Source: an uncultured virus (IMG/VR IMGVR_UViG_3300006793_000020)
Taxonomy: Duplodnaviria > Heunggongvirae > Uroviricota > Caudoviricetes
Length of the DNA: 64,000 nt
IMG/VR virus record: IMGVR_UViG_3300006793_000020
Strand: one strand, 5' to 3'
Every line of letters begins with the position of its first letter. The stretch's first letter is position 1. The notes below the pieces were generated by a model. The model was not told the origin of the DNA, did not search any database, and saw only the letters and a list, made by a program, of their open reading frames with translations. The position numbers and the translations under genes are program-made. Positions 3,188-50,687 of the stretch are shown piece after piece.

Positions 3188-4027
3188 ATGACAGACCCAC
3201 TACTAGACTTTTACAGACACAAAGAGATGTACATAAAACTGCCTACCGAGGGTAAATGGTACACATCTAACATTAAAATGTCCGATCAAAATGAGATTGG
3301 TGTTATGCCTTTGAGCTTCAAAGACGAAATGTTACTGAGTATTCCAGATAGTGTATATAACGGCGAAAGTTTATTTGAGATACTTAAAAGTATTGTACCT
3401 GACATGGAAAATCCATATGAGATCATGCTACCAGATGTAGACGTTATCTTATTGGCAAGCCGAATTAATAATAACGAAGAAGGTACACTCAGAACAGAAG
3501 CAAAATGCCCACACTGTGAATCAACTGAAGAATATGAGATAAAAATAATAAACATCCTCAATCAAATAAAACCAGTAAACGGTATTGAGATCGAACTTAG
3601 TAACGGACTAACTATTGTTTTTAAACCAAATAGTTTGAAATCTATAACAAGTAATCAGATCAGGATAACTGAAAATGCACAATTGCTACAACAGTTAGAA
3701 AACGAAACTGATCAATTAAAACAGCATGAAATCTTTCAGCAAAGTTTAGAGCGATCAACAGCAGCAAGTATGATGATCCTCGCAGACAGTATCGAAAAAA
3801 TTATCACACCATCCACTGAAGTTATTGACAATATAACATCAATACTTGCTTGGCTATCTAATAGTGACAGCGTAACAATCAAAAAACTACAAGAAATTAA
3901 CCAACAGATCAATGCCAATGGTATTGACAAGGAGTTTAAGTTTGAATGTAGTAATGAAGAATGTGGTAAAAAGTTTAAAAGTGCAGTGGAATTTAACCCA
4001 ACTTTTTTTTTCACAAACGACTCGTGA
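3188..4027 (+). CDS. gp26: Baseplate hub assembly protein, T4 gp26-like
   Basis: YIKLPTEG N-terminus, DVDVILLASR, CPHC and C-x4-C motifs, C-terminal NPTFFF; AGGA upstream. Confidence 0.75.
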   Translation: MTDPLLDFYRHKEMYIKLPTEGKWYTSNIKMSDQNEIGVMPLSFKDEMLLSIPDSVYNGESLFEILKSIVPDMENPYEIMLPDVDVILLASRINNNEEGTLRTEAKCPHCESTEEYEIKIINILNQIKPVNGIEIELSNGLTIVFKPNSLKSITSNQIRITENAQLLQQLENETDQLKQHEIFQQSLERSTAASMMILADSIEKIITPSTEVIDNITSILAWLSNSDSVTIKKLQEINQQINANGIDKEFKFECSNEECGKKFKSAVEFNPTFFFTNDS

Positions 4028-4260
4028 TTAGCCCAGAATCGGCGCAAAGTATGGTTGATAAAATGACCAAAGCAAATCGAGACCTACGAAAACAATTATA
4101 TGATATTGTATTGTACAGTGAAGGTGCATTTAGAGTAGACGAATTGTACCAGATGCCATTATCCCAACTAAGTGAAATTATGGACGCATTCACAGAGAAA
4201 AGGGAAAAAGAAAAAGAAGCAATAGACGCCATGCAAAGCAAAAACACTCGAAAATTTTAA
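4024..4260 (+). CDS. Small gp51-like baseplate assembly protein, possibly the -1 frameshift extension of gp26
   Basis: 78 aa with ELYQMPLSQL motif directly after gp26-like in the -1 frame; no clear RBS; frame open from 3997. Confidence 0.55.
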   Translation: MISPESAQSMVDKMTKANRDLRKQLYDIVLYSEGAFRVDELYQMPLSQLSEIMDAFTEKREKEKEAIDAMQSKNTRKF

Positions 4261-4299
4261 TCTGAAGTGTTCATTTATATCTATGTAAGTTTTATCTTT

Positions 4300-4687
4300 A
4301 TCTGATGTCTTACGACATCATCAATCTTCACTATCGTTCGATTGAATTATTTCATTCGATAACATTAGAAAACGTATATTATATCATGATTGATATAATT
4401 GATTATTACCATGATCTAAAGTCGCACTTAGCCTGATACGGCCAAGCACGACAAAAGATTCTGATATTACCAGTCACCTTGTACACCTTTATAGCAAAAC
4501 TAGTAAACTAGCAGAGGCGGTTGTGCTGTACCCCTTTACATGCTGCTTTCAACGCAAGCTACTGAGTCGCAATAAAGGCTACGTACTCAGAAATACTTCC
4601 AGGTTGTAATAGCTCAACAGAGCCTGGTCATTTGGTTTGTTCGCCCTCAAGTAAGATTCCGAGCTAGTGTTTCTCTAGCCCTCAATA
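4300..4687 (-). ncRNA. Candidate structured non-coding RNA downstream of GIY-YIG gene
   Basis: Largest gene-free gap in the window; several stems that close with G-U pairs only on the minus strand (4421-4452, 4661-4681), plus stems at 4562-4590, 4599-4627 and 4303-4320 (GUAA loop on minus strand). Confidence 0.55.
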
Positions 4688-5128
4688 CTATGGTTTCAAG
4701 GAGGGTATGTTATTTTTTAGTGATTCTTTGAGAGCCTGAGATCCGCCGATGCGGACATTTATTATGCCATTATAGTATTCATCAGTGAGTAAAACCTCTC
4801 TGTCGAATTGTTCTTTTGCCTCAAGGTAGGAAAGTTGACCACGTGTTGTACAAAAATATAAGATTTCTCTACTAAAGTTTTCTGGGCCTAATTCGTCTAC
4901 GTCTGCCTGTAGTTTGTCTGACGATCCCCAATAGTCTCGCCAATCACTTTCTACTAATGATTTTCTTTTTCTCTTTTTGCCTTTAAGTGGTGGCCTAGTT
5001 TTTTTGAACTTGGCTAATTTTTTGCCTATGTATTTTTTATCGTTAGTCAGATTTGTAATGATGTATACAAAACCAATATAATCATCTGGTATCTCTTCAA
5101 CAAGGATACCATGGTGTGTCCAATGCAT
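4688..5128 (-). CDS. GIY-YIG family endonuclease (EndoII/Seg-like, catalytic domain only)
   Basis: GFVYIIT...KYIGKK, basic insert, ESDWRDYWGSS, YLEAKEQF, YYNG. Confidence 0.8.
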   Translation of the reverse strand: MHWTHHGILVEEIPDDYIGFVYIITNLTNDKKYIGKKLAKFKKTRPPLKGKKRKRKSLVESDWRDYWGSSDKLQADVDELGPENFSREILYFCTTRGQLSYLEAKEQFDREVLLTDEYYNGIINVRIGGSQALKESLKNNIPSLKP

Positions 5129-6166: not shown

Positions 6167-6348
6167 TATCCGTCTCCGTATATTTTGTACCAAATATCGA
6201 TTGGTAGTATTCCGTTAGAAAGTAGAAAGATTGGATGCTCAGGACTAGGTCTACTACGTATTGTTTTGCCTTTATCAGGAGACTCAAATATCATGCCTCC
6301 TAGGCTTTGTAGTAAATCTTTATCAATATCATCCAGCAATGTCGACAA
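6166..6348 (-). CDS. Hypothetical protein (60 aa)
   Basis: Fills the operon gap after gp46; IFESPDKGKTI motif; LPIDIW motif. Confidence 0.65.
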   Translation of the reverse strand: MSTLLDDIDKDLLQSLGGMIFESPDKGKTIRSRPSPEHPIFLLSNGILPIDIWYKIYGDG

Positions 6349-8104
6349 TCTCCGTGTCTACACTAAATGATGTAAAGCCATTTTCTTTAATAACTTGTAA
6401 GATAGTATTAACTCTACCTTGCAGTTCATCTCGATGTGAGATGAGGAAAATGTTTTTGCCTCTTTCTCTTTCCATTTTTTTAAGTACACTGAGTGCACTA
6501 TCAACACCATTAGTATCCATTCCACTATCAACAAGTTCATCAATAGCAAGGAAGTTAAGTGGCGTATTCATAGTTTCAAATACATCTCTAAAACTCCAAC
6601 TAAGTCCAAGTATTAGCCTATTACGTTCGCCTCTAGATAAGTTGTCAAAGTCTAGTTCACGACCAAGTTCTGTAATTTCTACAGCGAGATCTGGTTGAAA
6701 CGAAACTTCATGTGGAAGTCCCAGTTTAGTCAAATAGTATGCAAGTCTAGAATTTAGATACTGTAAGTTTTGCTCAATAATACGTTTACGTATAAAGCTA
6801 TCTTTGTTTGTTAACAGTTTGTACAGGAAGTCTTGGTGTTCCTTTATACGCACAAGTTCATTCATCTTATCCCAACTAACTTCTTGTAGTGCAGTTTCCT
6901 TTAGACTGTCAATTTGTTCTTGATATGTATCTGTTTCGGATTGTTTGTTTCCGTATTCTGTAAGTAATTTATCAACTTGGTTCTGGTGTTGAAACGCTTC
7001 TTGCTCTGTATTATAGAGTGTACTTGGTAGTTGACCTAGTTCGCCTATTTCAGTAATCACTTCTGAATGTTCTTGTTCTTGCGAACCGTTAGCTAAAATT
7101 TGCATACGTGCATCAGCTAGTTGGTCTTCTTTATTACGTAGCAATTCTTCATGACTGTTATCGTGTAACTCTTGTCCACATGCATGACATTTTTCATCTT
7201 TAAGTAGTACTATCTCTTTTTCTAGTTTGATAATTTGTTTATCTAGTTTTTTAGTATCAGCATCTATTCTGGAGATCCAGCGGTTAGCATCGTCTAGCCG
7301 ACTCTTCTTTGACAAGTACTCAGCTAGTTCTTTATGCTTTGCGATCTCTGCTTGAATATCAACTTTATCTAATACGTTGATAGCTATTTCTAGTTCTTGC
7401 AGGCTTTCTTGTTTTTTCGTTTGCCAGAGGGTTTGTCGACGCTCAAGGTCACTAATACTCTTCGCAATTGTTTGATTTGCATCTTCAACTGCCTTAATTC
7501 GATACTCTTCTTCTTTGATTGCATCTTTATTCAACCTTTGTTGTTCTTTAAGAGCCTCCGCTTTCTCACTTAACATAGTGATACCAAGTAGTTGTTCAAT
7601 GATCGCTCTTTGATCATTTGCTCTCATACTAAGGAAGGGCTCTGTATATGTATTTAAGGCGATAATATGTTTAAACATATCATGACTCATCCCGAACAGT
7701 TTATCCACTTGTTCTTGTGTTTGGCGGTTCTCACCTTGTGCCTCGTTGCCTTCGTCAGTATCGATATTGTCAACATAAAATTTAAAAAGGTTAGGTTTGC
7801 GACCTCGTTCGATACGATAGTTAACACCATCTTTTTCAAAGTCCAGTGTAACTATCATACCTTTACCATTTGTTTTGTTGATAAGGTTGTCTTTACGTAT
7901 GTTAGTAAGTGCATTACCATACATTGCATATGATAGTGCATTGATTATTGTTGTCTTACCAGTGCCATTACGGCTACCATCTCCGCCTAAGTCAACATTG
8001 TTGCCCAGTACAAGTGTAAGTCCATTGTCGTTAAATCGTACAGCCTGAGTAACATTACCCACACTCATGAAATTCTTGATTGTGATGTCTTTAATAATAA
8101 TCAT
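6329..8104 (-). CDS. gp46: Recombination endonuclease ATPase subunit (SbcC/Rad50-like)
   Basis: KNFMSVGN, Walker A NGTGKTT, coiled coil with CHAC zinc hook, LSRGE signature, LAIDE Walker B, ISH. Confidence 0.95.
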   Translation of the reverse strand: MIIIKDITIKNFMSVGNVTQAVRFNDNGLTLVLGNNVDLGGDGSRNGTGKTTIINALSYAMYGNALTNIRKDNLINKTNGKGMIVTLDFEKDGVNYRIERGRKPNLFKFYVDNIDTDEGNEAQGENRQTQEQVDKLFGMSHDMFKHIIALNTYTEPFLSMRANDQRAIIEQLLGITMLSEKAEALKEQQRLNKDAIKEEEYRIKAVEDANQTIAKSISDLERRQTLWQTKKQESLQELEIAINVLDKVDIQAEIAKHKELAEYLSKKSRLDDANRWISRIDADTKKLDKQIIKLEKEIVLLKDEKCHACGQELHDNSHEELLRNKEDQLADARMQILANGSQEQEHSEVITEIGELGQLPSTLYNTEQEAFQHQNQVDKLLTEYGNKQSETDTYQEQIDSLKETALQEVSWDKMNELVRIKEHQDFLYKLLTNKDSFIRKRIIEQNLQYLNSRLAYYLTKLGLPHEVSFQPDLAVEITELGRELDFDNLSRGERNRLILGLSWSFRDVFETMNTPLNFLAIDELVDSGMDTNGVDSALSVLKKMERERGKNIFLISHRDELQGRVNTILQVIKENGFTSFSVDTEIVDIAG

Positions 8105-9108
8105 AGGTTGTTGTATATATCCACTAATAACTTTTTGTCTATCATTTCACTGTCTACAGCATTTAAGCTATTATACACTATCTGGTCTACATTTTCAACC
8201 TCTAAATCGTCTACTTGCCGCCAATCTTGTGCATGTTCTTCTTTTTTACTGGGCATTAGTGTAATATCACGTAATTGATATTGTGCCGCAAACGTTTCCT
8301 TAATAAAGTTTGCTTCTTCATACGTAATATTCACATCTAGTACAGCACGACAGTATGTATTGTGATTTAAAATAGAGTCAGCATCGTCAATTAGCTTACT
8401 CAGTGGCACAGTTCGATATCTTGGACCATCAAAGTTTAAATGTTCTGGCTTACCGCCCCATTCTAACTTCATCATTCCTCTATCATCGTCCCATGCATCA
8501 GCATAGTTGTGCGGAAATGGTGACCCTAGATAATGAATGTTACCTTTGTGCTGACGCTTGTGGAAATGCCCACTGAATACATATTCAGGACCGTGCAAGT
8601 GGCTTTCATTAATACCACCATGATCAGGCATCTCTACCATTGCGTTCATCTTGAAGTGTGGCAACTCAAAGTGCCCAAACATATAACGTGCTTTTATTTT
8701 GTTGATGTGTTTCCACTCGTCTCCCACTAGCCAGGGTATTAATGCAACATCATCTTGTTGAAATACATCTTCAACTAAGGTAACGTTATCAAATAAGCCC
8801 GCATATGGCAAACTATTAAGTTCACGTTTCTCACGATAGTATAAATCATGGTTGCCCATAATCATATACACCTTTTCAAAGTTTTCGCTTAGTTTCCTTA
8901 CATTGTTTACACTATAATTCAGTGTACTAACGTTAACACCAGCTCTGTGGTGGTGCCAATCGCCTAAAAATATGCAAGTTTCACAGTCTTTGCTGTTCGC
9001 AATAAACCAATCTACGAAATCTTCGCAGTCTTTGTTATGCTGTTTACTATTATTCTTGTTTCCGAAGTGAATGTCAGTAAAACACGCCGCTTTATTAAAA
9101 AATGTCAT
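8101..9108 (-). CDS. gp47: Recombination endonuclease nuclease subunit (SbcD/Mre11-like)
   Basis: Metallophosphoesterase motifs TDIHFG, LGD, GNHD, GHFH; adjacent to gp46. Confidence 0.95.
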   Translation of the reverse strand: MTFFNKAACFTDIHFGNKNNSKQHNKDCEDFVDWFIANSKDCETCIFLGDWHHHRAGVNVSTLNYSVNNVRKLSENFEKVYMIMGNHDLYYREKRELNSLPYAGLFDNVTLVEDVFQQDDVALIPWLVGDEWKHINKIKARYMFGHFELPHFKMNAMVEMPDHGGINESHLHGPEYVFSGHFHKRQHKGNIHYLGSPFPHNYADAWDDDRGMMKLEWGGKPEHLNFDGPRYRTVPLSKLIDDADSILNHNTYCRAVLDVNITYEEANFIKETFAAQYQLRDITLMPSKKEEHAQDWRQVDDLEVENVDQIVYNSLNAVDSEMIDKKLLVDIYNNL

Positions 9109-9149: not shown

Positions 9150-10028
9150 CTAGAAATTTGTTCCAGTTGCCTCTTTGCGATCTTTTTCCATTTGTTCGTC
9201 CCATTTTGCTTTGGACGCTGCTTCATGGTCAAGTTGTCTACTAAAGCTAGGATTAAACCCGTTCTCTTGTAACAGATCATCACGTATATTTTGATTACGC
9301 TTTTCAAGATTAAGAACTCTTGTAAAACTATTTGTAACAACTGCTGTGTAGTACGCAAATGGGTTTTGACTCTTTGCTTCGTTAAATTTTAAACCTATCT
9401 GAGATAGTTGCATTAGTGCATGACTACGCATTTCATCTACATACGTGTATCCTCGCCAATTACTGCGCATACTATAACGCTCACATAGTTTAATATACAT
9501 CTTTGCTAATTCATTTGTTGTGTGTCCATGTGTTGTGCTAAATTTTCCGTTGTCGATCCCACCTTCCCAGTGGCTTCGTACTACTTCTTGTGTTTCACCA
9601 TCACGTTTTGCATAGTGTTTAAATGGTGGAAAGTTAACTTTAACGTGACGATCTGCTTCTGTTTTAGGGTTAGTCTTACGTTTTGAATCACCAGGTACAT
9701 GTTCAAATGTCATTAATCTAAAGATTAAGTCGTCTGGATCAATTTCTTCAGGTTGTACTCTTGTTTCAGCTTGCTTTGGTTTATCTTTTGTACGTCTGCC
9801 AGCGTCTTGCCATCTTTTGTATGATTCCTCATAACCTTGTGAACTTAATACACTAGCTCTGTTCTCTCTTGCTTGTTGGATAATATCTGGATCAAAAATA
9901 TCTTCGTAGTTGTCTACAATGATATCAAATCTACCATATTCGTCATCAACTGAGTGACAATAGGTTAGTTTACTTTTATGTATTTCCTTCAGCATATCCT
10001 TGTTGTTAAGATAATTCTGTTTTCTCAT
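9150..10028 (-). CDS. gp55: Late transcription sigma factor
   Basis: NYLNNKD, NWRGYTYVDEM, KFNEAKSQNPFAYYT; upstream of gp47/gp46 as in T4-like phages. Confidence 0.92.
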   Translation of the reverse strand: MRKQNYLNNKDMLKEIHKSKLTYCHSVDDEYGRFDIIVDNYEDIFDPDIIQQARENRASVLSSQGYEESYKRWQDAGRRTKDKPKQAETRVQPEEIDPDDLIFRLMTFEHVPGDSKRKTNPKTEADRHVKVNFPPFKHYAKRDGETQEVVRSHWEGGIDNGKFSTTHGHTTNELAKMYIKLCERYSMRSNWRGYTYVDEMRSHALMQLSQIGLKFNEAKSQNPFAYYTAVVTNSFTRVLNLEKRNQNIRDDLLQENGFNPSFSRQLDHEAASKAKWDEQMEKDRKEATGTNF

Positions 10029-38975: not shown

Positions 38976-40445
38976 ATGAGCGATGACGTAGAAATTGTAA
39001 ACTATGAGCTTGATCCAGATCCGGAAACAGCAGCAGAGTTAGTAAAACCAAAACTAGATAAAATTAGCCCTACCATGTGTATGGCTAAGTGGTTGTGGAC
39101 TAGTGTTCACTTAACCAACGGAACAACTAATAGTTGTTTCCTTCCTCCTATTCACAAAATTGAAGTTGAAAATATTACAGATAACCCAAAAGGGTTACAC
39201 AATACTCCACAGAAAAAAGAACAACGGCAGATGATGCTAGACGGCGAACAGCCTGATGGGTGTAGCTACTGTTGGAATATTGAAAAGATGGATAGATCCT
39301 TTAACAGTGATAGACATTATCGCAGTAGTGAGCCTTGGGCACAAGCTGGATGGGATGATGTATTGGAAAAAGGTGCTGATGGCGACATTGAACCTCGCTT
39401 CATGGAAGTTAACTTTAACCACGCTTGTAACTTAGCATGTAGTTATTGTAGTCCACATTTAAGTAGTAAGTGGGCAGAAGATATTGAGCAGAATGGTCCT
39501 TATGATACTATTGTTCCTCATAATAGTATTGACTATTTCAAGCAAATTGGACAGTATCCTATTCCAAACCGTGAACATAATCCATATGTAGAAGCGTTTT
39601 GGGAATGGTGGCCTGAACTATACCCTAAACTTCAGAACTTCCGTATGACAGGCGGTGAGCCGCTTATGGATAAAAATACATTCCGTGTACTTGACTATGT
39701 AATTGATAACGGTCGTCCAGACCTTGAAATGGCTGTCACTACAAACGCTAGTGTACCTGATAAGTTATGGGACAAGTTTGTAGACAAAGTAAGTTTTATC
39801 AGCGAGTACAACAAACTGAAACGCTTTAGAGCATTTGTTAGTGTAGACGGTTGGGGCGATCAAGCAGAGTATATGCGGCACGGACTAGATTTTGACCGTA
39901 TGTGGAATAACGTAAATAATTATCTAACCAGAGTAGATGAAGGACTTGTTACGTTTATTGTCACATTCAACATGCTTAGTTTGCCAAGTATTAAAAAGTT
40001 ACTTGAAGGCATACTAGAACTACAGCGTATACATAATGTAACTAAAAGTAGACGAGATGCTGACGGAAACATTGTAGTGTATGGACACCACAAAGTGTTT
40101 ATTGATACACCAATGTTGCGTTATCCGCTTTGGCAGAGTTTACAACTAACACCAGAAAGCCATTGGCATTATGCAGATGAGGCACTTGAATTTATGAAAG
40201 CAAATATTGACAAGCATCGTGATAGCCGTTGGGTAGGGTTTAAACCACACCAGATTGAGCGATTTGATCGCAGTATTGAATTTATGAAACAAGGATTTGA
40301 TACTGATGAGCAACGTGAAGAAGCTGAAGAAAACTTTGTAAGATTTTTTGATGATCACGATAGACGAAGAGATACTAGTATATTAGATACCTTCCCTGAG
40401 TTTAGTGAACAATACCACGAATGGAAAGACAAATACAATGTATAA
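38976..40445 (+). CDS. Radical SAM protein with N-terminal Twitch-like domain
   Basis: CNLACSYC, TGGEP; N-terminal CMAKW...SC...CSYCW. Confidence 0.92.
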   Translation: MSDDVEIVNYELDPDPETAAELVKPKLDKISPTMCMAKWLWTSVHLTNGTTNSCFLPPIHKIEVENITDNPKGLHNTPQKKEQRQMMLDGEQPDGCSYCWNIEKMDRSFNSDRHYRSSEPWAQAGWDDVLEKGADGDIEPRFMEVNFNHACNLACSYCSPHLSSKWAEDIEQNGPYDTIVPHNSIDYFKQIGQYPIPNREHNPYVEAFWEWWPELYPKLQNFRMTGGEPLMDKNTFRVLDYVIDNGRPDLEMAVTTNASVPDKLWDKFVDKVSFISEYNKLKRFRAFVSVDGWGDQAEYMRHGLDFDRMWNNVNNYLTRVDEGLVTFIVTFNMLSLPSIKKLLEGILELQRIHNVTKSRRDADGNIVVYGHHKVFIDTPMLRYPLWQSLQLTPESHWHYADEALEFMKANIDKHRDSRWVGFKPHQIERFDRSIEFMKQGFDTDEQREEAEENFVRFFDDHDRRRDTSILDTFPEFSEQYHEWKDKYNV

Positions 40446-42126
40446 GAATATAGATTACCTAGACGAACGAGAAAATATGAAAAAAGTATACGGCTGTGAT
40501 AGCATGTGTACTGCAAAATTTCTTACAAGTACGTTGTATCTACAAAGCGGCCACACACACAGTTGTTATCATCCGCTACCACATAAAATACCACTAGAAG
40601 AAATTAAAGACAATCCAAGTGCATTGCACAATACAAAACATAAGATTGCTAGACGTAAACAAATGCTTAACGGCGAACGTCCTGATGAGTGTAATTATTG
40701 TTGGCGTGTTGAAGATATTGACGACAATCAAATTAGTGACCGTGTTATCAAAAGTAAAAACGAACTGTTACTTACACCAGATGCACATGAAATGATCTTG
40801 GAAAACGGATGGGATCATAACTATAGACCAACATACTTGGAAATTAGTTTTGGTAACGAATGTAACATGAAGTGTGCCTATTGTCATCCTAAAGCAAGTA
40901 GTGCATGGAAAAAAGAGATGGACAAGGAAGGGCTTTTCCCTGAAGCACCACACTTACAAGTACAGCACGAAAAAATCTATGCAGAGGATGATAACCCGTA
41001 TGTTGACGCTTTTTGGAAATGGTGGCCTTACTTACGTAAAACACTTAAGGTAATTCGCATTACAGGCGGCGAGCCATTACTACAACAAAACGTTTGGAAG
41101 TTTTTAAAGAAACTACAACAAACAGGCGAGTGTAGTGAAATGGTTTTGCAAATTAATACCAACTTAAATATCAAAACTAAACTAGTAGAGAGAATGTGTG
41201 ACCAGGTTAATGAGCTGTTGCACGATGAGAAAATTAAACGTTTCCAGATTTTTAGTAGTATTGAAAGTTGGGGCGATAGAGCATCATATACACGTAGTGG
41301 TTTAGACTTGGGATTGTTTGAAGCAAACATTAATGCAATTATGGACAAGATGGGTCACCATCATGTTGATGACTTTAATGGAATCCAGATTATGAACACA
41401 TATAACATTATGTGTGTAACAAGCTACATCAGCTTCCTTGAGAAAATACTGGAATGGCGCCGTAAGTTTCAGAGACCTGGTATGGAATATCCAAAGATTA
41501 TGTTTGATATTCCTCATTGTACTGAGCCTAACCATTGGACACTAGTTGGACTTCCTGACGCATTTAATGAGTATATTGACTTAACAACAGATTTTATGGA
41601 TCGATGGAAGTGGAAAGCAAACTGGCATAAGTATCCAAAAGAGGATCACAACAAACAATATCATATGTACTTTAGCGATGAAGAAGTACGTGCATGGTCT
41701 AGAGTACAAGCAATGTGGAAAACTATTTGTGACAAACGTAACCGTGTACAAACAGATGCATATCTTGAACCAAGAGAAATTGATGATGCTAGACGTAACT
41801 GGTACTTGTTTATTAAATCAACTGATGCAAGACGTAATACAGACTTCAAGGAGATTTTTCCTGAGATGGTTGAATATTATGATATGTGTGCTACACTATA
41901 TGATATTTCTGAGATGGAATATAATCGTAAATGCAAGGAAGAACTATTAAAAGATGAACCAGTTGATTTTCATTGGGATGATGATTTTGTTTGGCATCAT
42001 CCTGGACTAGCAAAGAGCTTGATTAACTATAGAAAGATTAGGAATATACCTACCAGAATGTACAGTGAAGATAATTTAGTAGGTGCATTTGGAAAATTTG
42101 ATGAAGAAGAAACCGCTGATGAATGA
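40438..42126 (+). CDS. Radical SAM protein with N-terminal Twitch-like domain
   Basis: CNMKCAYC, TGGEP; CTAKF...SC...CNYCW; start placed at ATG 40438. Confidence 0.92.
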   Translation: MYKNIDYLDERENMKKVYGCDSMCTAKFLTSTLYLQSGHTHSCYHPLPHKIPLEEIKDNPSALHNTKHKIARRKQMLNGERPDECNYCWRVEDIDDNQISDRVIKSKNELLLTPDAHEMILENGWDHNYRPTYLEISFGNECNMKCAYCHPKASSAWKKEMDKEGLFPEAPHLQVQHEKIYAEDDNPYVDAFWKWWPYLRKTLKVIRITGGEPLLQQNVWKFLKKLQQTGECSEMVLQINTNLNIKTKLVERMCDQVNELLHDEKIKRFQIFSSIESWGDRASYTRSGLDLGLFEANINAIMDKMGHHHVDDFNGIQIMNTYNIMCVTSYISFLEKILEWRRKFQRPGMEYPKIMFDIPHCTEPNHWTLVGLPDAFNEYIDLTTDFMDRWKWKANWHKYPKEDHNKQYHMYFSDEEVRAWSRVQAMWKTICDKRNRVQTDAYLEPREIDDARRNWYLFIKSTDARRNTDFKEIFPEMVEYYDMCATLYDISEMEYNRKCKEELLKDEPVDFHWDDDFVWHHPGLAKSLINYRKIRNIPTRMYSEDNLVGAFGKFDEEETADE

Positions 42127-43405
42127 AGACCATTTACTAAACGATAGTAAGTTTTTTTGTATGGCGCCTTGGGTCACTATGCATTTTTGGCCAAGTGGAC
42201 AGGCGTTTCCTTGTTGCGTAATACTTCCTGAAAGCAATAATCTTTCCGACGAATTTATGGGAAATTTAAACGACAATAGCATTGGTGAACTTTGGAACAC
42301 TGAACAAATGCGAGAGTTGCGCCGTAATATGATGGCAGATAAACCCAGCCGGGCATGTAGACGTTGCTATCAACAGGAAAAAGATGCAGATATTAGAACA
42401 CTACGTATAAGTCTAAATGAAGACTTTGGCGATATGTTTGATCGTGTTAAAGACACACATGCAGATGGATCGCATGATGACCCACGCTTTTACTACTGGG
42501 ACGTAAGATTTAATAACTTGTGTAACCTACGCTGTTTAAGTTGTGGTCCACAGTTTAGTAGTAGTTGGATTAACGATGCTAAAAAGGCATGGAACTACAA
42601 AGAGCCTGCACTATTAGAGTTACCTAAAACATTCTGGGACGATGCACTGCCTGCAATTCAGGAAGTACGCCACGCATACTTTGCTGGAGGCGAACCATTA
42701 ATTACAGCAGAGCATTATAAAATGTTAGATACTTGGTTAGAGTGGGGCAACACTGATGTAAATATTAGTTATACAACCAACTTTACTAAAACACATTTGG
42801 GTAAAAAGCGAGTGTTTGACTACTGGAATAAGTTTACAAATGTTAACGTTGGTGCCAGTTTGGATGATAATTGGGAACGTGCAGAATACTTGCGTAAAGA
42901 TACTATCTGGACAGATGTTGTAAAGAATCGGCGTGAAATGATAGCTGAGTGTCCTGATACTAGGTTCTTTATTAGTAGTACTATTAGTGCTTACAATGTA
43001 CTGCATTGGCCAGACTTTCATCGTGAATGGATTGAAGAAGGACTAGTTAGTGTTAACAGTTTAAACTTAACTATCTTAACACATCCTGAACGTTTAAGTA
43101 TACAAATCTTGCCAGAAGATTATAAAAGACAAGTAGCCAAAAAGTGGGAAAAACATATTGAATGGATTGAAGATCTACGCAAAAAACAAAACCCAGACTG
43201 GCAACATGATTCAAATAACCTACAGGGTATTATTAAGTTTATGTATGCTGACAATACCTTTGATACAAAATTTAACGAGTTTCTGTGGAACACAAAAGAA
43301 TTTGATACGATTAGAAACAATGATGCATATAAAGCATACCCAGAGTTAGAACAATTAAAAAAATATGAGATAATGCCAGATGACCCAAGATATAGAATCG
43401 CCTAA
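42119..43405 (+). CDS. Radical SAM protein with N-terminal Twitch-like domain
   Basis: CNLRCLSC, AGGEP; CMAPW...PCC...CRRCY; start placed at ATG 42119. Confidence 0.92.
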   Translation: MNEDHLLNDSKFFCMAPWVTMHFWPSGQAFPCCVILPESNNLSDEFMGNLNDNSIGELWNTEQMRELRRNMMADKPSRACRRCYQQEKDADIRTLRISLNEDFGDMFDRVKDTHADGSHDDPRFYYWDVRFNNLCNLRCLSCGPQFSSSWINDAKKAWNYKEPALLELPKTFWDDALPAIQEVRHAYFAGGEPLITAEHYKMLDTWLEWGNTDVNISYTTNFTKTHLGKKRVFDYWNKFTNVNVGASLDDNWERAEYLRKDTIWTDVVKNRREMIAECPDTRFFISSTISAYNVLHWPDFHREWIEEGLVSVNSLNLTILTHPERLSIQILPEDYKRQVAKKWEKHIEWIEDLRKKQNPDWQHDSNNLQGIIKFMYADNTFDTKFNEFLWNTKEFDTIRNNDAYKAYPELEQLKKYEIMPDDPRYRIA

Positions 43406-44675
43406 TCCACTATTAACTGACAGTAAAGTATTCTGCATGGCACCATGGATACATATGCATGTATGGCCAAATGGTAGAACTTTCCCTTGTTGTTTAGCTG
43501 AACATAATGACGGTAACGATTATGGAAATACTAATACACATACTCTTGAAGAGTTGTGGAACAGTGACCTAGCTAAAAAGCTTCGTACAAACATGCTAAA
43601 TGGTAAAGCTAGTAATGCATGTAACCGTTGTTATGAACTTGAAAACGATAGTAACGCATATACACTTCGTAAAAATATGAACAATCGTTTTGCACATCAG
43701 TTCTGGCGTACAAAAGATACACATGCGGACGGGCAATATGATGATATCAATCTTACATACATGGACTTCCGTTTTAGTAACTTGTGTAATATGAGTTGCC
43801 GTAGTTGTAGCCCAACATTTAGTACCAGTTGGTTTGATGATTTTGTTAAAGAGTTTGGCGCTGTGCCTAAAGATGTTGCAGAGCAAAAATTTATACAACT
43901 TAAAAATAAACCAGGCTTCCTAGAAGAACTACGCCCGTATTTGGATACAGTAGAAGAAGTATACTGGGCAGGTGGAGAACCACTAATAACAGACATGCAC
44001 TGGGAAATTATGAACCACTGGGTTGAAACTGGTCATGCACAAAATGTTAGTGTGTTATATACTACAAACTTTAGCCAGCTTACATATAAAAAACAACATG
44101 TATTTGATTTGTGGAAACAATTTAAGCAAGTTAAAGTAAGTGCTAGCTTAGACGCAATGGGAACACATGGTGAGTATATACGCAAAGGTACTATTTGGTC
44201 AGACATTGAAGCAAATAGACAAGCAATGCTAGATGATCCAGAACTTACACATATTGAGTTTGATTTGTGCCCTACACTTAGTTTAATGAACGTACTACAT
44301 TTCCCAGACTTTCATGAAGATTGGGTAAGAAAAGGATTTATTCCGCCAGGTGAGATAAGGTTAAATAACTTGCTGGACCCAAAGTTCTTGAGTATGCAAG
44401 CATTGCCAAATGATTACAAAATAAAAGTAACCCAACGATGGGAGGAACATCTTGCATGGTTAGACAAACAGGAAAACTTTATTCCTGATCATTGGCCTGC
44501 TAATCAGTTTGTTAGTAGCGCAGAGGGACTATTAAACTTTATGAATACAACAGACCGCACCAGTGAGTTGCCAGATACGATTAAAGAATTTGAACGTTGG
44601 GACCGTATTAGAAATGAAAATTGGCAGGAAGCACTGCCAGAATTATTGTGTATAGGAGAATATCGTGAGCAGTAA
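43380..44675 (+). CDS. Radical SAM protein with N-terminal Twitch-like domain
   Basis: CNMSCRSC, AGGEP; CMAPW...PCC...CNRCY. Confidence 0.92.
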   Translation: MTQDIESPNPLLTDSKVFCMAPWIHMHVWPNGRTFPCCLAEHNDGNDYGNTNTHTLEELWNSDLAKKLRTNMLNGKASNACNRCYELENDSNAYTLRKNMNNRFAHQFWRTKDTHADGQYDDINLTYMDFRFSNLCNMSCRSCSPTFSTSWFDDFVKEFGAVPKDVAEQKFIQLKNKPGFLEELRPYLDTVEEVYWAGGEPLITDMHWEIMNHWVETGHAQNVSVLYTTNFSQLTYKKQHVFDLWKQFKQVKVSASLDAMGTHGEYIRKGTIWSDIEANRQAMLDDPELTHIEFDLCPTLSLMNVLHFPDFHEDWVRKGFIPPGEIRLNNLLDPKFLSMQALPNDYKIKVTQRWEEHLAWLDKQENFIPDHWPANQFVSSAEGLLNFMNTTDRTSELPDTIKEFERWDRIRNENWQEALPELLCIGEYREQ

Positions 44676-45948
44676 TACATATTGTTTATACCCGTTTACT
44701 AACTTAAACAGTAACACTGAAGGCAGTGTTAAGTTGTGTTGTAGTATTAATGAAAATATCCACGCAACTGGCGGTGATGGACAAGAACTAAACTTTGGTA
44801 CTCATAGTGTTGAAGAGATTTGGAATAGTGACTACATGGTGAACGTTCGTAAACAAATGCTCAAGGGGGAAAGACCGTCAGCATGTGATGTATGTTGGAA
44901 ACTAGAAGATAGTGGTATCCAAAGCTCAAGACAAAGTGCATTTGGTGAGCTTAAAGATTGGGCTGTGCCTAAAGAATATCAAACTAGCAACCCCCCATTG
45001 CCACAGAGCTTAGAACTTCGTTTGGGAAATTTTTGTAACCTACGTTGTAATAGTTGCTGGGCACTTAGTAGTGATAGAGTTGCAGATGAAAGACGTCTTA
45101 TACAGCGTAAAGATGATAATATGCCGTTCTGGTTACGTAAAGAATGGGATCATGAGTTAAAGCTAGATGAACAAGCTAACTGGCGTTGGTGGGAAAGTGA
45201 TGAGTTTGTTAAGAGTATTAAAAAACTTGCACCCAAACTTAAACGACTATACCTAACTGGAGGCGAACCAACTCTAATCAAACGTAATATTGAAATCATG
45301 CAAATGATACTTGACAGTGGCAACACAGACTGTTATATTGCACTTACAACAAACCTAACACAGTGGAACGAGATATTTTATAATACAATGTCACGCTTTA
45401 AAAATGGCGAGATACAGATTAGTATTGATCATATTTACGATAAAAACGAATATATTAGGTACCCAACTAAATGGGAAAACATTGAAAGAAATATTTTAAA
45501 AATATACGATGCATTTCCTCAAAGTTGGAAGATCAAACATTACACAGTGTTTCAAACTTATAACTACGATGCTATACCACAAGTACTTGATTGGGTACAC
45601 AATCACCGTAGCTGGTATGATAGTAAAGAAAAGAACAGACTTTACATTTGGAGCCCAATTATGTTAGATAGTCCTAGTTATTTGGATGTCAGGATCGTAC
45701 AACCTGAGATACGTGCAAAAGCAGTTGCGGCATTAAAGTCATACGAGCCTAGTCACAATGTACCAAATATCTGGTATCAACATGGGATAGAACAAGCAAT
45801 TAAAAGACTAGAAGATAATTCACTAAGTGAAGAATATTGTGCTGAAAAACGACAGCATTTTAGAGAGTTTAGTGACACTATGGACCGTCATCGTGGCACC
45901 AAATGGTATGATACTTTCCACAATATTGCGTTTGAGGTTCTAACGTAA
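44665..45948 (+). CDS. Radical SAM protein with N-terminal Twitch-like domain
   Basis: CNLRCNSC, TGGEP; CLYPF...LCC...CDVCW; GTG start with AGGAG. Confidence 0.92.
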   Translation: MSSNTYCLYPFTNLNSNTEGSVKLCCSINENIHATGGDGQELNFGTHSVEEIWNSDYMVNVRKQMLKGERPSACDVCWKLEDSGIQSSRQSAFGELKDWAVPKEYQTSNPPLPQSLELRLGNFCNLRCNSCWALSSDRVADERRLIQRKDDNMPFWLRKEWDHELKLDEQANWRWWESDEFVKSIKKLAPKLKRLYLTGGEPTLIKRNIEIMQMILDSGNTDCYIALTTNLTQWNEIFYNTMSRFKNGEIQISIDHIYDKNEYIRYPTKWENIERNILKIYDAFPQSWKIKHYTVFQTYNYDAIPQVLDWVHNHRSWYDSKEKNRLYIWSPIMLDSPSYLDVRIVQPEIRAKAVAALKSYEPSHNVPNIWYQHGIEQAIKRLEDNSLSEEYCAEKRQHFREFSDTMDRHRGTKWYDTFHNIAFEVLT

Positions 45949-48161
45949 TGAGTCAAGAAGATCAAGGTATTGCATGGTACAGACTACAGCAGAAAAAACG
46001 AAGAGACCCGCCTACTAGGGAAGAGGGTACTTATTTAGAAGACCGCAGCACTGCTACACAGAAGATTATGGAAAAATGGAGTAAAGGACCACAAAAAGGT
46101 CTGGCTCCTGTTGAGATTGAGTATAATATCAGTCGACAAACTAAGTTATGTCTGCTTATGTGTCCGGAATGGGATCCAGGTTTTCCGCATTATGGTATTG
46201 CTAAACTTGCAGGTGTAACCAATACAGCAGGGTTTGAAACAAAGTGTTTTGACTTAAATGTAGAAGCATACAGGGCATTTTGGGACGTTTTTGGCGGAGA
46301 TGATGCCTGGGATATTCATTATGACCCTTGGGACGGCCCACGTGATTGGCACTGGATAGGCGAACAATACTGGAACGAGTTACATGAATATGTAAAGCCA
46401 ATACTTGATAAGGCAGTAGATCAAATGGTAGAGTTTGCGCCAGACTTTTTGGGTGTAAGCCTTTACTACTGTAATGAAGAGCCTACTGATTATATTATTA
46501 AAGCAATTAAAGAACGGTTACCTAACATTAAAATTATTGTAGGTGGTCCTAGTACACACTATAGTTATTTTAAGCCAAAAGACATTTATGATTATGTTGT
46601 TAACGGTGAGGGAGAACGCCCACTGTTAAACATCTTGATGCAACACGAAAAGAAACTAGAAGTTGAAGGCGAAAAATCTGACAACGGAAAAACACTAATA
46701 TTACGTCAAGCAGAAAATGAACGTGTTAGTTTAGATGAACTTCCTTATCCTGATTACAGCAACATGCCCATGGACAAATACAGTTTTCCAAATGGAGCAT
46801 TACTTGCTATTAGTAGAGGATGCATTGCTAAATGTACATTCTGTGAGGAAACACACTATTACAAATACAGACAGCGTACAAGTGTTAGTACACTGGATGA
46901 AGTAATTCATATGCATAATACATATGGAACAAATGTTTTTTACTTTGTTGACAGTTTAGTAAATGGTAATCTAAATGAGCTACGTGCCTTTGCTGAAGGT
47001 GTAATTGCCAGTGGTATAAAAATACACTGGAGTGGTTATTCCAGATGTGACGGACGCATGGATTTAGAATATATGCAAATACTTCGTGACAGTGGATGTG
47101 AAGCTCTTAACTATGGTACAGAAAGTGGTGCACAAGAAGTATTAGATGCCATGGATAAAAAAGTTACAGTGCCAGAAATGGAAGCCAACTTCCGTGATGG
47201 TAAAAAAGTTGGTATTGCTTCAATGACTAACTGGATTGTTGGCTATCCAAATGAAACATATCGTATGTTTGAAGATAGTATGACATTCTTATGGCGGCAA
47301 CGTAATCAAGGATTACTTAATATTGGTCAAGGCACAGGCTTTAGTGTTGGTGTTGATACTATTGTAGGTCAAAACTTTGATAGATTTAATTTAAAACAAT
47401 GGTATTATTATGATCACTGGATTACCAAAGACGACAAAATGAGTATCGCACACAAACTAATACGTATGAAAACGTTTAGTATGTTTACTGACTTCTTACT
47501 GAGCGAATCAGAGATTGGCCGACCTACTCGTCATAATCTACGTGAACGCCATTACACTATTGAATGGAATGATCCACTAAAGCAAATAGAAATCGAATAT
47601 CCTAATGATGATTTTGATTATGACATAATCAAGCCAGGCATAAGTAATTTTGCAGATAGTTTAGTAAACGAAGTATGGCCACTACTGCACATAATGTGGA
47701 GGACCAGAGGCGGTTATAAACTAAACTTAAAATTTAACTATGAATGGGAATTGGAAGAATGGGGTGCCAGAAATGCAGCACCATTATATGCCAACTATGA
47801 TTTTGAAATTACAGACGATGGACATTGGAAAGCTGACTTTGCTTGGGATTATAGACAAACAGATACAGATTACGAATACAATGACCATGTTTGGCAGGAC
47901 CAAGATGGTAACACCATAATAGATCCAGATACAGTTGGACCAGTGTATACAGTAATGAACTTTTTTGGTGATAACAGCAATGCTGCTACTCGTGCTAGGA
48001 AACTAGCATGGAAAGGCGATCCTAACTTTAAAGGTAAGGATCCGTGGAATGCGTTTGACGCAGAATGGTTTTGGAAAGTTAAACAAGACTTTGCAACGGC
48101 ACGTTATCACGATTATAGTTTTAAATATGACTGGCAAGGCGAAGGAAAATGGGATGAGTGA
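45948..48161 (+). CDS. Cobalamin-binding radical SAM protein (class B methyltransferase-like)
   Basis: B12-binding region (IIVGGP, NGEGE), SRGCIAKCTFC, YGTESG, IVGYPNET. Confidence 0.88.
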   Translation: MSQEDQGIAWYRLQQKKRRDPPTREEGTYLEDRSTATQKIMEKWSKGPQKGLAPVEIEYNISRQTKLCLLMCPEWDPGFPHYGIAKLAGVTNTAGFETKCFDLNVEAYRAFWDVFGGDDAWDIHYDPWDGPRDWHWIGEQYWNELHEYVKPILDKAVDQMVEFAPDFLGVSLYYCNEEPTDYIIKAIKERLPNIKIIVGGPSTHYSYFKPKDIYDYVVNGEGERPLLNILMQHEKKLEVEGEKSDNGKTLILRQAENERVSLDELPYPDYSNMPMDKYSFPNGALLAISRGCIAKCTFCEETHYYKYRQRTSVSTLDEVIHMHNTYGTNVFYFVDSLVNGNLNELRAFAEGVIASGIKIHWSGYSRCDGRMDLEYMQILRDSGCEALNYGTESGAQEVLDAMDKKVTVPEMEANFRDGKKVGIASMTNWIVGYPNETYRMFEDSMTFLWRQRNQGLLNIGQGTGFSVGVDTIVGQNFDRFNLKQWYYYDHWITKDDKMSIAHKLIRMKTFSMFTDFLLSESEIGRPTRHNLRERHYTIEWNDPLKQIEIEYPNDDFDYDIIKPGISNFADSLVNEVWPLLHIMWRTRGGYKLNLKFNYEWELEEWGARNAAPLYANYDFEITDDGHWKADFAWDYRQTDTDYEYNDHVWQDQDGNTIIDPDTVGPVYTVMNFFGDNSNAATRARKLAWKGDPNFKGKDPWNAFDAEWFWKVKQDFATARYHDYSFKYDWQGEGKWDE

Positions 48162-49161
48162 ATTAATAAGAATTGAACAAGGCGGTGAACCGTTTGTAAA
48201 CATCACTTGGCAAGTTAGTAACTTGTGTAACTTTCGTTGTACATACTGTAATGAGTCTAATTGGAACGGAAGTAATCTTAACTTAGATATTGAAGCTATC
48301 AAAGCAGGACTAACTAAACTAATTGACTATGAACTTAGTAGAGGTTATACTAGACTTAAAGTATTCTTTAGCGGCGGCGAGCCTTGTTACTGGAAGCCAC
48401 TAGTGCCTGTAATGGAACATATACTAGCAAGCGGAATGACTGAAGTCAAGTTTGCTGTTAATACCAACCTTAGTAGTAAACGAGCATGGTGGGAAAAGAA
48501 TGTACATTACTTTGATGATGTTGTTGCCAGTTACCATCCTGAATTTGTTGACAGCGACCATTACTTGGAAATTTACAAGTTTTTAAGTGACCGTGTTAAC
48601 TACTTGTGTGGGCGTATGATGATGCATGAGCCCACATGGGACGAAGTTATTGACTTTAGTAAACGAATAAAAACAGAAATGAATGAGCACAATTGGCGTA
48701 TTGAATACGTGCCAATATTTGAAGAGCTTAGTCATACAACACGCCCGTTTAATTATAAAAATCCAGAGCACAAAGAGTTTTTAGAGAAAACTAACTTAGA
48801 GCAAGATATTAAATATAATGTGCCAGCCAAAGCACTTGGTATGGGTAGTATGGAAGTGTACAGTGACGGAACCGAACAGCCTATTAATTGTAATAGATTA
48901 GTAGCAGAAAGTAAAAACTTCTTCAAGGGTTGGAAATGTTTAATACCCATGGAGAGTATCTTTATTAACTGTGAAGGACATATTGATATGGGTAGCTGTG
49001 GTGTTATGCCACGAGTAGGTAACTTGTATGATCCAGAACTAGAGTTAGACTTACCAACAAGCGTAATTTGTCCTAAGACACATTGTCATTGTGGTACAGA
49101 CATTTACATTACAAAATATAAGGATAGAAATTATGAACCATCTAATCAATTTAGCACATGA
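48154..49161 (+). CDS. Radical SAM protein with C-terminal Cys-rich (Twitch/SPASM-like) domain
   Basis: CNFRCTYC, SGGEP; C-terminal WKC...SCG...CPKTHCHC; start placed at ATG 48154. Confidence 0.9.
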   Translation: MSELIRIEQGGEPFVNITWQVSNLCNFRCTYCNESNWNGSNLNLDIEAIKAGLTKLIDYELSRGYTRLKVFFSGGEPCYWKPLVPVMEHILASGMTEVKFAVNTNLSSKRAWWEKNVHYFDDVVASYHPEFVDSDHYLEIYKFLSDRVNYLCGRMMMHEPTWDEVIDFSKRIKTEMNEHNWRIEYVPIFEELSHTTRPFNYKNPEHKEFLEKTNLEQDIKYNVPAKALGMGSMEVYSDGTEQPINCNRLVAESKNFFKGWKCLIPMESIFINCEGHIDMGSCGVMPRVGNLYDPELELDLPTSVICPKTHCHCGTDIYITKYKDRNYEPSNQFST

Positions 49162-49465
49162 ATATTTCAACGCATGGAATATTAATGATGTAGAACAACT
49201 AAAGCCATTATTTCACGAAGACATTGAGCTCACTGATTGGGACGTTAGTGTTAAGGGATTTGATCAGGTTATTAAAACCAATGATAACATCTTTAAAGGT
49301 GCACCAGGAATAAGAGCTGAAATACTTGGTATGACAAATAACGAACACACAGTCAGCGCACAGTTACGTATACATATTCCTGAGAAGGAAGAAGCAATTG
49401 ATGTAGTAGATGTTATAACATTTACTAATAACAAAGTAAGTTCTATCAGGGCATACAAGGGCTAA
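49133..49465 (+). CDS. SnoaL/NTF2-like protein
   Basis: YFNAWN...LFHEDIEL...VVDVITF...IRAY; AAGGA before ATG 49133. Confidence 0.8.
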   Translation: MNHLINLAHEYFNAWNINDVEQLKPLFHEDIELTDWDVSVKGFDQVIKTNDNIFKGAPGIRAEILGMTNNEHTVSAQLRIHIPEKEEAIDVVDVITFTNNKVSSIRAYKG

Positions 49466-49466
49466 C

Positions 49467-50687
49467 ATGGACACCAAAACATACTGCATCTTACCGTACA
49501 ATCATTTAAGTATAGACCCAACTGGACAAATTCGTCCATGTTGTAACTATAACTTCCATTCCAAGAACTATCCAGGAAAAGAAGCTGGATGGACATTCAA
49601 AAATATTATGGATTGTGAAGATGGGTTACTTGATGCAGTGCCTCATCGTGAGTTACGCAAAGATATTGAAAGTGGTAAAAAACATGACTTTTGTAATCGT
49701 TGCTGGGTAGTAGAAGATAATGGTGGCTTTAGTTATAGACAAAGTTGGAACCAATGGTTTGACACTGAAGAGCAACACAAGTTACACAATAATATTAATA
49801 TCGAATATCTAGAGCTTACACTAGGAAACAAATGTAATATTCAGTGTAGAATGTGCAATCCTTGGTCAAGCAGTATGTGGGCTGACGATATTACTAAAAA
49901 TCCCGAAGTTAATTTTTGGAGAGCAGATGTATCAAAAATTAACTTTGAATGGTATAACCATCCAAACTTTGACCGTGTATTTGAAGAGATTATTCCAACA
50001 ATAAAACACATTAATATGTTGGGTGGCGAACCACTATTTGTTCCCAAGTATTATGAACTCTTGCAACGTGTTGTTGATAGTGGGCGAGCATCAGAAGTCA
50101 GTTTACAGTTTAACACTAATATGTTAGCAGTACAAAACAAAGTATTTGACTTGTGGAAACACTTCAAAGGACTTAATATAAACATGAGTTGTGACGGTGT
50201 CAATGAAGTAAACGAATATGTTAGATGGCCTGGTAAATGGAGTAAGTGGGAACGCAACTTACAAAAAGTAATTGACTGGTCAAAGCAAATGAAACCAGGA
50301 CAGTGGACACTACAAGTACACAGTACAATGAGTAGTTTAACCTGGCTGGACTTGGCTAATTTATATGAATACACACAAACACTGGATATGGATATTAGCC
50401 TTCCCTATCTTATTCAAGTAAACCAACCTGCACACATGGACGCAATACATTTGCCTGAAGCAATCAAACAAAAAGGTTATGATGCTGCATGTAGCGTATT
50501 AAACAACAGTACAGCACCAGAATGGGAAAAAGCAAACAATCAAGCCTTGCTTGATCATGTTATGCAAAATGAACGTGATCCAGCAATGTGGGATCAATTT
50601 ATTGATGAAACAAATAGACTCGACATTTTGAGAAAACAAAGTATACTGGATGTAATACCTGAGTACGCTGAATACTGGAAAAAATAA
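49467..50687 (+). CDS. Radical SAM protein with N-terminal Twitch-like domain
   Basis: CNIQCRMC, LGGEP; CILPY...PCC...CNRCW. Confidence 0.92.
   Translation: MDTKTYCILPYNHLSIDPTGQIRPCCNYNFHSKNYPGKEAGWTFKNIMDCEDGLLDAVPHRELRKDIESGKKHDFCNRCWVVEDNGGFSYRQSWNQWFDTEEQHKLHNNINIEYLELTLGNKCNIQCRMCNPWSSSMWADDITKNPEVNFWRADVSKINFEWYNHPNFDRVFEEIIPTIKHINMLGGEPLFVPKYYELLQRVVDSGRASEVSLQFNTNMLAVQNKVFDLWKHFKGLNINMSCDGVNEVNEYVRWPGKWSKWERNLQKVIDWSKQMKPGQWTLQVHSTMSSLTWLDLANLYEYTQTLDMDISLPYLIQVNQPAHMDAIHLPEAIKQKGYDAACSVLNNSTAPEWEKANNQALLDHVMQNERDPAMWDQFIDETNRLDILRKQSILDVIPEYAEYWKK

Follow-up and report, generated by a model that had tools for sequence, protein, structure and literature searches.

The window analysed here, a stretch of 64,000 nt from an uncultured virus (IMG/VR record IMGVR_UViG_3300006793_000020), is a segment of a T4-like jumbo phage. 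Its genes include a portal-like one (1-1134), nuclease genes resembling gp46/gp47 (6329-9108) and one for a late sigma factor (9150-10028); no DNA match was found among cultured phages. At a convergent operon end lies a gene-free gap, 4261-4687, which an earlier note on this DNA had singled out and which is the largest in the window when GTG and TTG count as start codons. The gap and the nuclease gene beside it contain the following features.

4688..5128, minus strand: SegE-type GIY-YIG nuclease gene, 146 aa (PF19835, phrog_447), whose last codons overlap the 5' end of the RNA
4405..4705, minus strand: structured non-coding RNA of ~300 nt, its ends placed by conservation
4644..4705, minus strand: 5' domain, with P1 (4705-4701/4648-4644), P2 (4689-4686/4653-4650) and the variable hairpin P3 (4681-4661)
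4556..4627, minus strand: P4 hairpin (4627-4599) and P5 (4598-4556), the loop of P5 (4578-4573) making pseudoknot 1
4486..4578, minus strand: core, with pseudoknot 1 (4578-4573/4491-4486), pseudoknot 2 (4554-4550/4523-4518, one bulged C), P7 (4544-4541/4496-4493), P8 and P9
4466..4472, minus strand: box 1 (UGGUAAU), which would base-pair with the DNA template strand across box 2
4421..4452, minus strand: P10, the 13-bp terminal hairpin between the boxes, 94.6% paired
4405..4411, minus strand: box 2 (TGGTAAT), a direct repeat of box 1 and the putative start site of a persistent hybrid
4345..4404, no strand assigned: A+T-rich tract with a palindrome at 4399-4378, a candidate DNA unwinding element
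4303..4345, minus strand: two DNA-type hairpins, one with tandem G.A and a GATA loop (4345-4321), the other a 7-bp stem with a GTAA loop (4320-4303)

The minus strand of 4400-4687 folded better than its shuffled versions (z -2.32), while the plus strand gave a z of 0.20. A search with a 24-nt pattern drawn from the RNA only returned 70 viral loci, and the window was aligned with 42 of the 48 distinct loci of sufficient length (n=43). Across these 43 homologues a structure of 69 pairs was formed in 91.1% of cells, compared to only 34-45% for slid controls, and two-sided changes were found at 27 of the 69 pairs. P1 was paired in 98.6% of cells, with two-sided changes at three of its five pairs, and the two pseudoknots were paired in 98.4% (PK1) and 100% (PK2). 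RNAalifold independently recovered P1, P4, the first pseudoknot helix, P8 and P10. The core combines nested pseudoknots with invariant unpaired bases. The structured minus-strand RNA proposed in the earlier note is thus borne out by the one-strand folding bias and the covariation; as judged from sequence comparison, the gap 3' of the nuclease gene encodes a real structured RNA of ~300 nt with two pseudoknots.

All of the minus-strand motifs named previously were located at their positions, and most are parts of this fold. The CCAGG/CCUGG stem shows two-sided changes at 3/5 pairs in the 43 homologues. The CUGAGU/ACUCAG stem lies within an 11-pair helix that is 72% paired, with two-sided changes at seven pairs, and the 13-bp stem is 95% paired, its changes being mostly G-U/G-C swaps. 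The GGGG/CCUC stem is invariant, but it formed part of the search pattern. The first hairpin (GGGCUAG/CUAGCUC) is present; its length varies among homologues and it was left out of the pair scoring. Three details were not retained. The proposed pseudoknot UGAGCUAU/GUAGCUUG is paired in 43.7% of cells with zero two-sided changes, and GCUU pairs instead with AAGU at 4598-4595. The RNA does not begin right after the stop codon, since P1 at 4705-4701 begins within the last codons of the gene. The direct repeat UUGAGGGC occurs in one of the 43 homologues, the window itself, and can thus be ascribed to chance. By contrast, the GGUAAU repeat proved to be a key conserved feature. The stem with the GUAA loop at 4320-4303 is present as described, but it lies beyond box 2, among hairpins that resemble single-stranded DNA.

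Evidence for a transcript of the RNA is weak. In four metatranscriptome runs, examined as contigs only, one 216-nt contig (depth 2.7) spans 4525-4740; in the other three runs, contigs fall in the nuclease gene but not in the RNA, an absence from which nothing can be concluded. An origin of the T4 oriF/oriG type would have a middle-mode promoter within ~100 bp; here sigma-70-like sites occur at chance level and the minus strand has none ahead of the RNA, and sigma-70 may not be the promoter type of this phage.

No match to group I or II introns, RNase P, tmRNA or known ribozymes was obtained with Rfam or ARAGORN. Whether the RNA belongs to a known Rfam family, a check that the earlier note had suggested, has a two-part answer: the window itself has no Rfam match, and relatives carry RF01718 (Polynucleobacter-1) as their 5' domain. 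Among 80 loci retrieved with the nuclease protein, most have a conserved gene-free stretch behind the gene, and an Rfam scan of 20 such loci gave a Polynucleobacter-1 match in the first 140 nt of two. In many full-length homologues the first 140 nt correspond to RF01718. The 5' domain in the window is of another kind and shorter, and RF01718 did not match the window at the gathering threshold (37 bits) or at E values up to 10. A link between the two groups is nonetheless provided by model R1, which was built from the window's subfamily alone and matched 11 of the 33 loci chosen for it, with scores of 53-108 bits; the 11 all belong to the Polynucleobacter-1 type and include four island copies (see below). 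The RF01718-positive loci L289, L278, L298, L286, L281 and L305 were matched at E values of 3e-14 or better. R1 gave weak or no matches on more distant subfamilies, and none at five nuclease loci without the RNA. The RNA of the window is homologous to the RF01718-carrying RNAs. Of 109 RNAs from the various families, 105 can form a pairing of the PK2 type, compared to 52 after shuffling, and together with the R1 matches this suggests that RF01718 is only the 5' domain of some members.

The Polynucleobacter-1 motif was tabulated as a possible cis-regulator by Weinberg et al. (2010, PMC2864571). Its Rfam model contains neither the boxes nor the pseudoknot core or DNA tail found here, and the literature searched, which took in few subscription papers, nowhere describes the full RNA, its boxes or the islands. 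Three RNAs of family B (L016, L012 and L054) have clusters of mini-hairpins with GNA/GNNA loops in a variable stem inside the RNA, resembling the DNA-type tail.

Two same-sense 7-mers, the twin boxes, flank the last hairpin, usually 47-68 nt apart, and take many forms across subfamilies. Both anchors were found in 144 RNAs; in the 77 that remained after dereplication, boxes 1 and 2 were identical in 67, compared to 12% for shuffled pairs. The identity also holds within families: 32/37 in the Polynucleobacter-1 family (12.5% when shuffled) and 28/31 in another (47%). Each box stands behind a GUG-GAC-like motif; position -5 co-varies as well, and positions -3 to -1 differ between the boxes in a fixed way (CTC vs TCT). 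The box hardly varies within the window's subfamily, with position 1 matching in 26 of 43 (17.4 expected), and its lone internal change (L147) is present in both copies. Parsimony on a tree of 63 GIY-YIG proteins whose boxes match requires 33 or more changes of the 7-mer. In a 58-sequence alignment no RNA column varies as the complement of the boxes, and no column of the GIY-YIG protein explains more than 47% of the entropy at any box position.

Same-sense co-variation is what pairing of an RNA to the DNA template strand predicts, so box 1 is read as pairing opposite box 2. We infer from these sequences that box 1 pairs with the DNA strand complementary to box 2. A protein that binds both boxes could also make them co-vary, the GIY-YIG protein being the one compared here. 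No recurring third copy of the box was found in the genomes G002, G004 and G005 or in the window; the exact 12-mer occurs elsewhere once in G002 and not in G004, G005 or the window, and G002 has no inverted repeat of the box. An alternative arrangement in which the segments upstream of the boxes form a helix (two-strand guiding) was rejected: the longest run in family D was 3.53 compared to 3.17 when shuffled, and the helix is absent in family B.

Behind box 2 the character of the sequence changes. The AT-rich tract previously noted at about 4345-4410 is real, with 80% A+T; only 6 of 5813 sampled segments are equally rich. At 118 of the 119 loci A+T content increases once box 2 is passed; the G.A-hairpin motif then follows in 107. 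When hairpin loops were counted in 110 dereplicated loci, the RNA part contained 43 GNRA, 12 GNYA and 11 GNA loops, whereas the 170 nt behind box 2 contained 75 GNA, 61 GNYA and 39 GNRA loops, plus 50 GNA loops on the other strand. Tandem-G.A hairpins lie behind box 2 in 82 of the 110. GNA triloops and tandem-G.A hairpins are typical of single-stranded DNA. Two tandem-G.A patterns found the element and no more than one other site per sequence, although the stricter of them missed the element of G005.

Matches to the RNA in bacterial genomes (n=20) include 14 full elements, mostly from Polynucleobacter, with identical boxes in 11 of the 14. They lie in low-GC islands (L436-L455; L515-L520), found in Polynucleobacter and other records and present in two copies in some genomes. 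Repeats of tRNA-Phe 9.5-11 kb apart bound three of five island regions checked. The islands encode an integrase, a second tyrosine recombinase (188 aa), a DUF6641 protein, a clamp-loader-like ATPase and small Pro/Lys-rich proteins. Neither a GIY-YIG nuclease nor a PD-(D/E)XK resolvase was found among 26 island proteins scanned, no co-oriented gene lies upstream of the RNA, and the DNA-type tail accompanies the RNA. The island RNA had no match in PLSDB plasmids. The islands are candidate satellites of these jumbo phages. An N-terminal motif common to island and phage proteins was considered and dropped as weak (9/709 phage ORFs).

The RNA, the boxes, the A+T tract and the DNA hairpins always travel together, which argues for action in cis. 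The earlier note had offered, as one possibility, that the RNA primes replication or forms an R-loop next to the AT-rich tract; this fits the evidence best, with origin activity as its inferred part. Our main reading, to which we assign a probability of roughly 55%, is that the element is a cis-acting replication-origin module with a pre-primer of the ColE1 RNA II / T4 oriF type. The RNA would be the tail of the gp47-gp46-nuclease transcript and would fold during synthesis; island copies would require a promoter of their own. Once RNA polymerase had passed box 2, the folded RNA would present box 1, which would pair with the open template strand at box 2. This pairing would start a persistent RNA-DNA hybrid extending into the A+T tract, and the displaced DNA could fold into the G.A and GNA hairpins, a possible loading site for a helicase or primase. 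The hybrid would finally be cut or ended to yield a primer. On the same mechanism, the tRNA-Phe islands would be satellites whose own copy of the origin lets them borrow the phage replisome. Counting against the origin reading, the hybrid would be short (7 nt, or at most 12 nt and interrupted), and in the phages the linkage to the nuclease gene described below is very tight. The weak transcript evidence, the incomplete match at box position 1 in the window's subfamily and the negative results for RNase H and for R1 at L522, given below, also count against it. GC skew is uninformative around the element: in a 99%-complete relative it follows the coding strand, with no switch at the element.

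Two known systems offer parallels. In ColE1 (PMC4412123, PMC5043065), a folded transcript forms a persistent hybrid, for which base pairing between an rG stretch of the RNA and a dC stretch on the template strand is required. The element here likewise has a long folded RNA ending at a candidate origin, an RNase H gene is adjacent in one lineage, and an RNA stretch pairing with the template strand would start the hybrid. It differs from RNA II, in which the rG stretch lies far upstream, in the lack of an Rfam match in the window or of a PLSDB plasmid match for the island RNA, a length of 300-500 nt with two pseudoknots, and variable 7-nt boxes in place of a G/C run. To our knowledge, folded pre-primers of the ColE1 type are known only from plasmids, whereas the present element occurs in phages and islands. 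T4 oriF and oriG, as outlined in PMC3016281, consist of a promoter and a downstream A+T unwinding element that holds the R-loop primer; the resemblance is that here, too, the phage is T4-like and the transcript would run into an A+T-rich unwinding element. The R-loops of T4 depend neither on a particular sequence nor on RNA structure, and ~100 bp suffice for a minimal origin, whereas the element here has a conserved folded RNA and DNA hairpins. By analogy the element may work like ColE1 RNA II or T4 oriF, whether or not it belongs to either class.

An RNA that acts in trans could also account for paired boxes. It would serve as a scaffold or decoy in which each box binds one copy of some other protein, from the phage or the host, and the DNA hairpins would be a separate element. 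The similar context of the boxes, each behind its GUG-GAC-like motif, would suit this, and large ornate phage RNAs of unknown role exist. Four box positions change often and freely, however, which is hard to reconcile with read-out by a protein; the DNA-type tail moves with the RNA into the bacterial islands; and the RNA is not abundant in the four metatranscriptome runs. We consider such a role unlikely.

Co-varying direct repeats around a short template within a pseudoknotted scaffold are also reminiscent of the template-jumping mechanisms of DRT2 and DRT10. In a substrate of this kind (DRT2/DRT10/telomerase type), a polymerase would copy box 2 to box 1 and realign, generating tandem units of the 50-70 nt hairpin. 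A PF00078 reverse transcriptase was found in none of five long contigs (one 99% complete, four incomplete) and is absent from the 26 island proteins. Genome G002 contains no tandem copy of the box pair elsewhere. This explanation appears very improbable.

We regard as slighter still the chance that the RNA, as a ribozyme or self-processing 3' element, is cleaved at the two boxes in order to end or stabilise the gp46-nuclease mRNA. The compact core with its nested pseudoknots and invariant unpaired bases has the look of a ribozyme, and the convergent operon end is a suitable position; yet Rfam gave no ribozyme or intron match, the island copies lack a co-oriented upstream gene, and the DNA-type tail would be left unexplained.

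The association of the RNA with the nuclease gene requires separate consideration. At the 70 loci found with the RNA pattern, the GIY-YIG stop codon lies 153-177 nt upstream on the same strand in 68, and contig ends cut the other two. With patterns from two other subfamilies, GIY-YIG was upstream at 90 of one set of 120 loci, the remaining 30 being too short for a decision, and at 104 of a second set of 120, in which 9 were too short and 7 lacked it. A box-2 pattern returned 51 matches, of which 35 are real elements, every one with GIY-YIG, 15 are chance and one is too short. There is one element per genome in G002, G004 and G005. L317, a complete genome without a SegE gene, had appeared to hold the RNA without the nuclease and proved to be a chance motif match in a coding region. 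An unnamed structured RNA co-oriented with a GIY-YIG gene, as originally described, is thus supported by linkage as well as covariation.

The nuclease is compact, a single catalytic domain with a basic hairpin and no DNA-binding domain, in agreement with the earlier description. Residues Y22, Y33, G35, E103 and N120 are invariant in 100 sequences and K37 is nearly so; there is no invariant Arg. The predicted model (pLDDT 95.5) has the I-TevI catalytic domain as its best structural match (Z 8.5, rmsd 2.6, 82 residues aligned), although Foldseek linked it to I-TevI at an E value of only 0.16, and no PDB sequence match was found. The phrog_447 family is labelled 'NAD synthetase' in PHROGs and in many phage records, yet its fold is GIY-YIG. 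The likeness to I-TevI/td, a GIY-YIG homing endonuclease in a group I intron, is confined to the structure of the catalytic domain: here there is no DNA-binding domain, interrupted host gene or Rfam intron match, and at 71 of 80 loci the gene stands, in single copy, at its conserved place behind gp46.

The same position can be held by another enzyme. Seven motif loci lack GIY-YIG. The four that were translated have a PD-(D/E)XK gene (PF24608) directly before the RNA, identified at one tested locus as phrog_244, a RusA-like resolvase; the remaining three are a near copy of a PD-(D/E)XK locus, a chance match, and a divergent element behind a DUF6812 gene. When 28 loci were retrieved with the resolvase, the twin-box RNA lay directly behind it in 15, and none had GIY-YIG within 2.5 kb. 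Both genes use the slot behind gp46. PF24608 was absent from five long contigs, four of them known bearers of GIY-YIG (a positive control was run), PF19835 was absent from five partial resolvase contigs, and T4 endonuclease VII was absent from two near-complete GIY-YIG genomes. The shared slot, the failure to find the two together and the lack of endonuclease VII suggest that GIY-YIG is probably a junction resolvase. The most likely interpretation is that the SegE-type GIY-YIG protein is a phage junction resolvase, exchangeable with a RusA-like enzyme and without a fixed RNA partner. If so, a common gene often carried under the 'NAD synthetase' label is a junction resolvase.

An RNase H gene lies directly behind the resolvase gene in 9 of the 28 resolvase loci (RNase HI; L522-L529 and L531). 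The three inspected have an RNA-like stretch, a divergent form of the element, then an A+T tract and a G.A hairpin after it, and R1 did not match the element of this lineage in L522. Searches of G002, G004, G005 and the window yielded no RNase H homologue.

These results bear on a nuclease-RNA particle, which the earlier note had entertained: GIY-YIG or the resolvase would bind the RNA, and box 1 would guide nicking of its own DNA at box 2. OMEGA systems (TnpB/IscB-HEARO RNA) have a small nuclease gene overlapping a pseudoknotted RNA, as here, and TnpB guide RNAs overlap the 3' end of their gene. The position of GIY-YIG directly upstream at nearly all motif-found loci long enough to tell, the overlap of the RNA with the 3' end of the gene, the single catalytic domain with its basic hairpin, and the fixed difference between the box flanks would all be accommodated. 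On the other side, two unrelated nuclease folds alternate before the same RNA, and the islands have the RNA and neither nuclease. Melnitz-like GIY-YIG homologues, ~70% identical, keep the basic insert and have no RNA behind the gene, and no residue co-varies with the boxes. In L031, L282 and L287 an extra gene of 250-900 nt separates the GIY-YIG gene from the RNA, indicating that direct overlap is not required. Compared with OMEGA there is no RuvC or HNH domain and no variable guide with a recurring target elsewhere in three long contigs and the window, and in contrast to systems in which one nuclease family is always linked to its RNA, either of the two can occur by itself here. The particle is weakened by the RusA-like resolvase in the same slot, the nuclease-free islands and the RNA-free homologues, and we think it distinctly improbable.

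A more far-reaching form of the origin reading is possible but less likely than not. Under it, a widespread clade of jumbo phages would start replication by a double-pseudoknotted RNA that recognises downstream DNA via a freely re-programmable box of 7-12 nt, with no initiator protein and possibly with a small resolvase-type nuclease cutting there, and a hitherto undescribed family of satellites, integrated at tRNA-Phe in freshwater betaproteobacteria, would have copied this origin to hijack the replisome. Should the origin reading be correct, it would bear on the start of replication in T4-like jumbo phages besides T4, would assign a role to an Rfam motif that has been an orphan for 15 years while extending that motif to ~3x its length, and would point to a new satellite family. 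The cassette is defined (~450 bp), and island copies exist in cultured Polynucleobacter.

Some further features of these genomes were recorded. A run of nine T lies within 4000-4030 of the window, where a baseplate-hub gene (3188-4027) meets a 78-aa gene (4024-4260), and the same run is present in L001, L003, L045 and L072. Eight radical SAM/SPASM genes are clustered at 38976-50687 of the window, followed by sugar-modifying and methyltransferase genes to ~62000. The 345-kb relative G002 carries 28 tRNA genes and a permuted tmRNA at 287900-308000.
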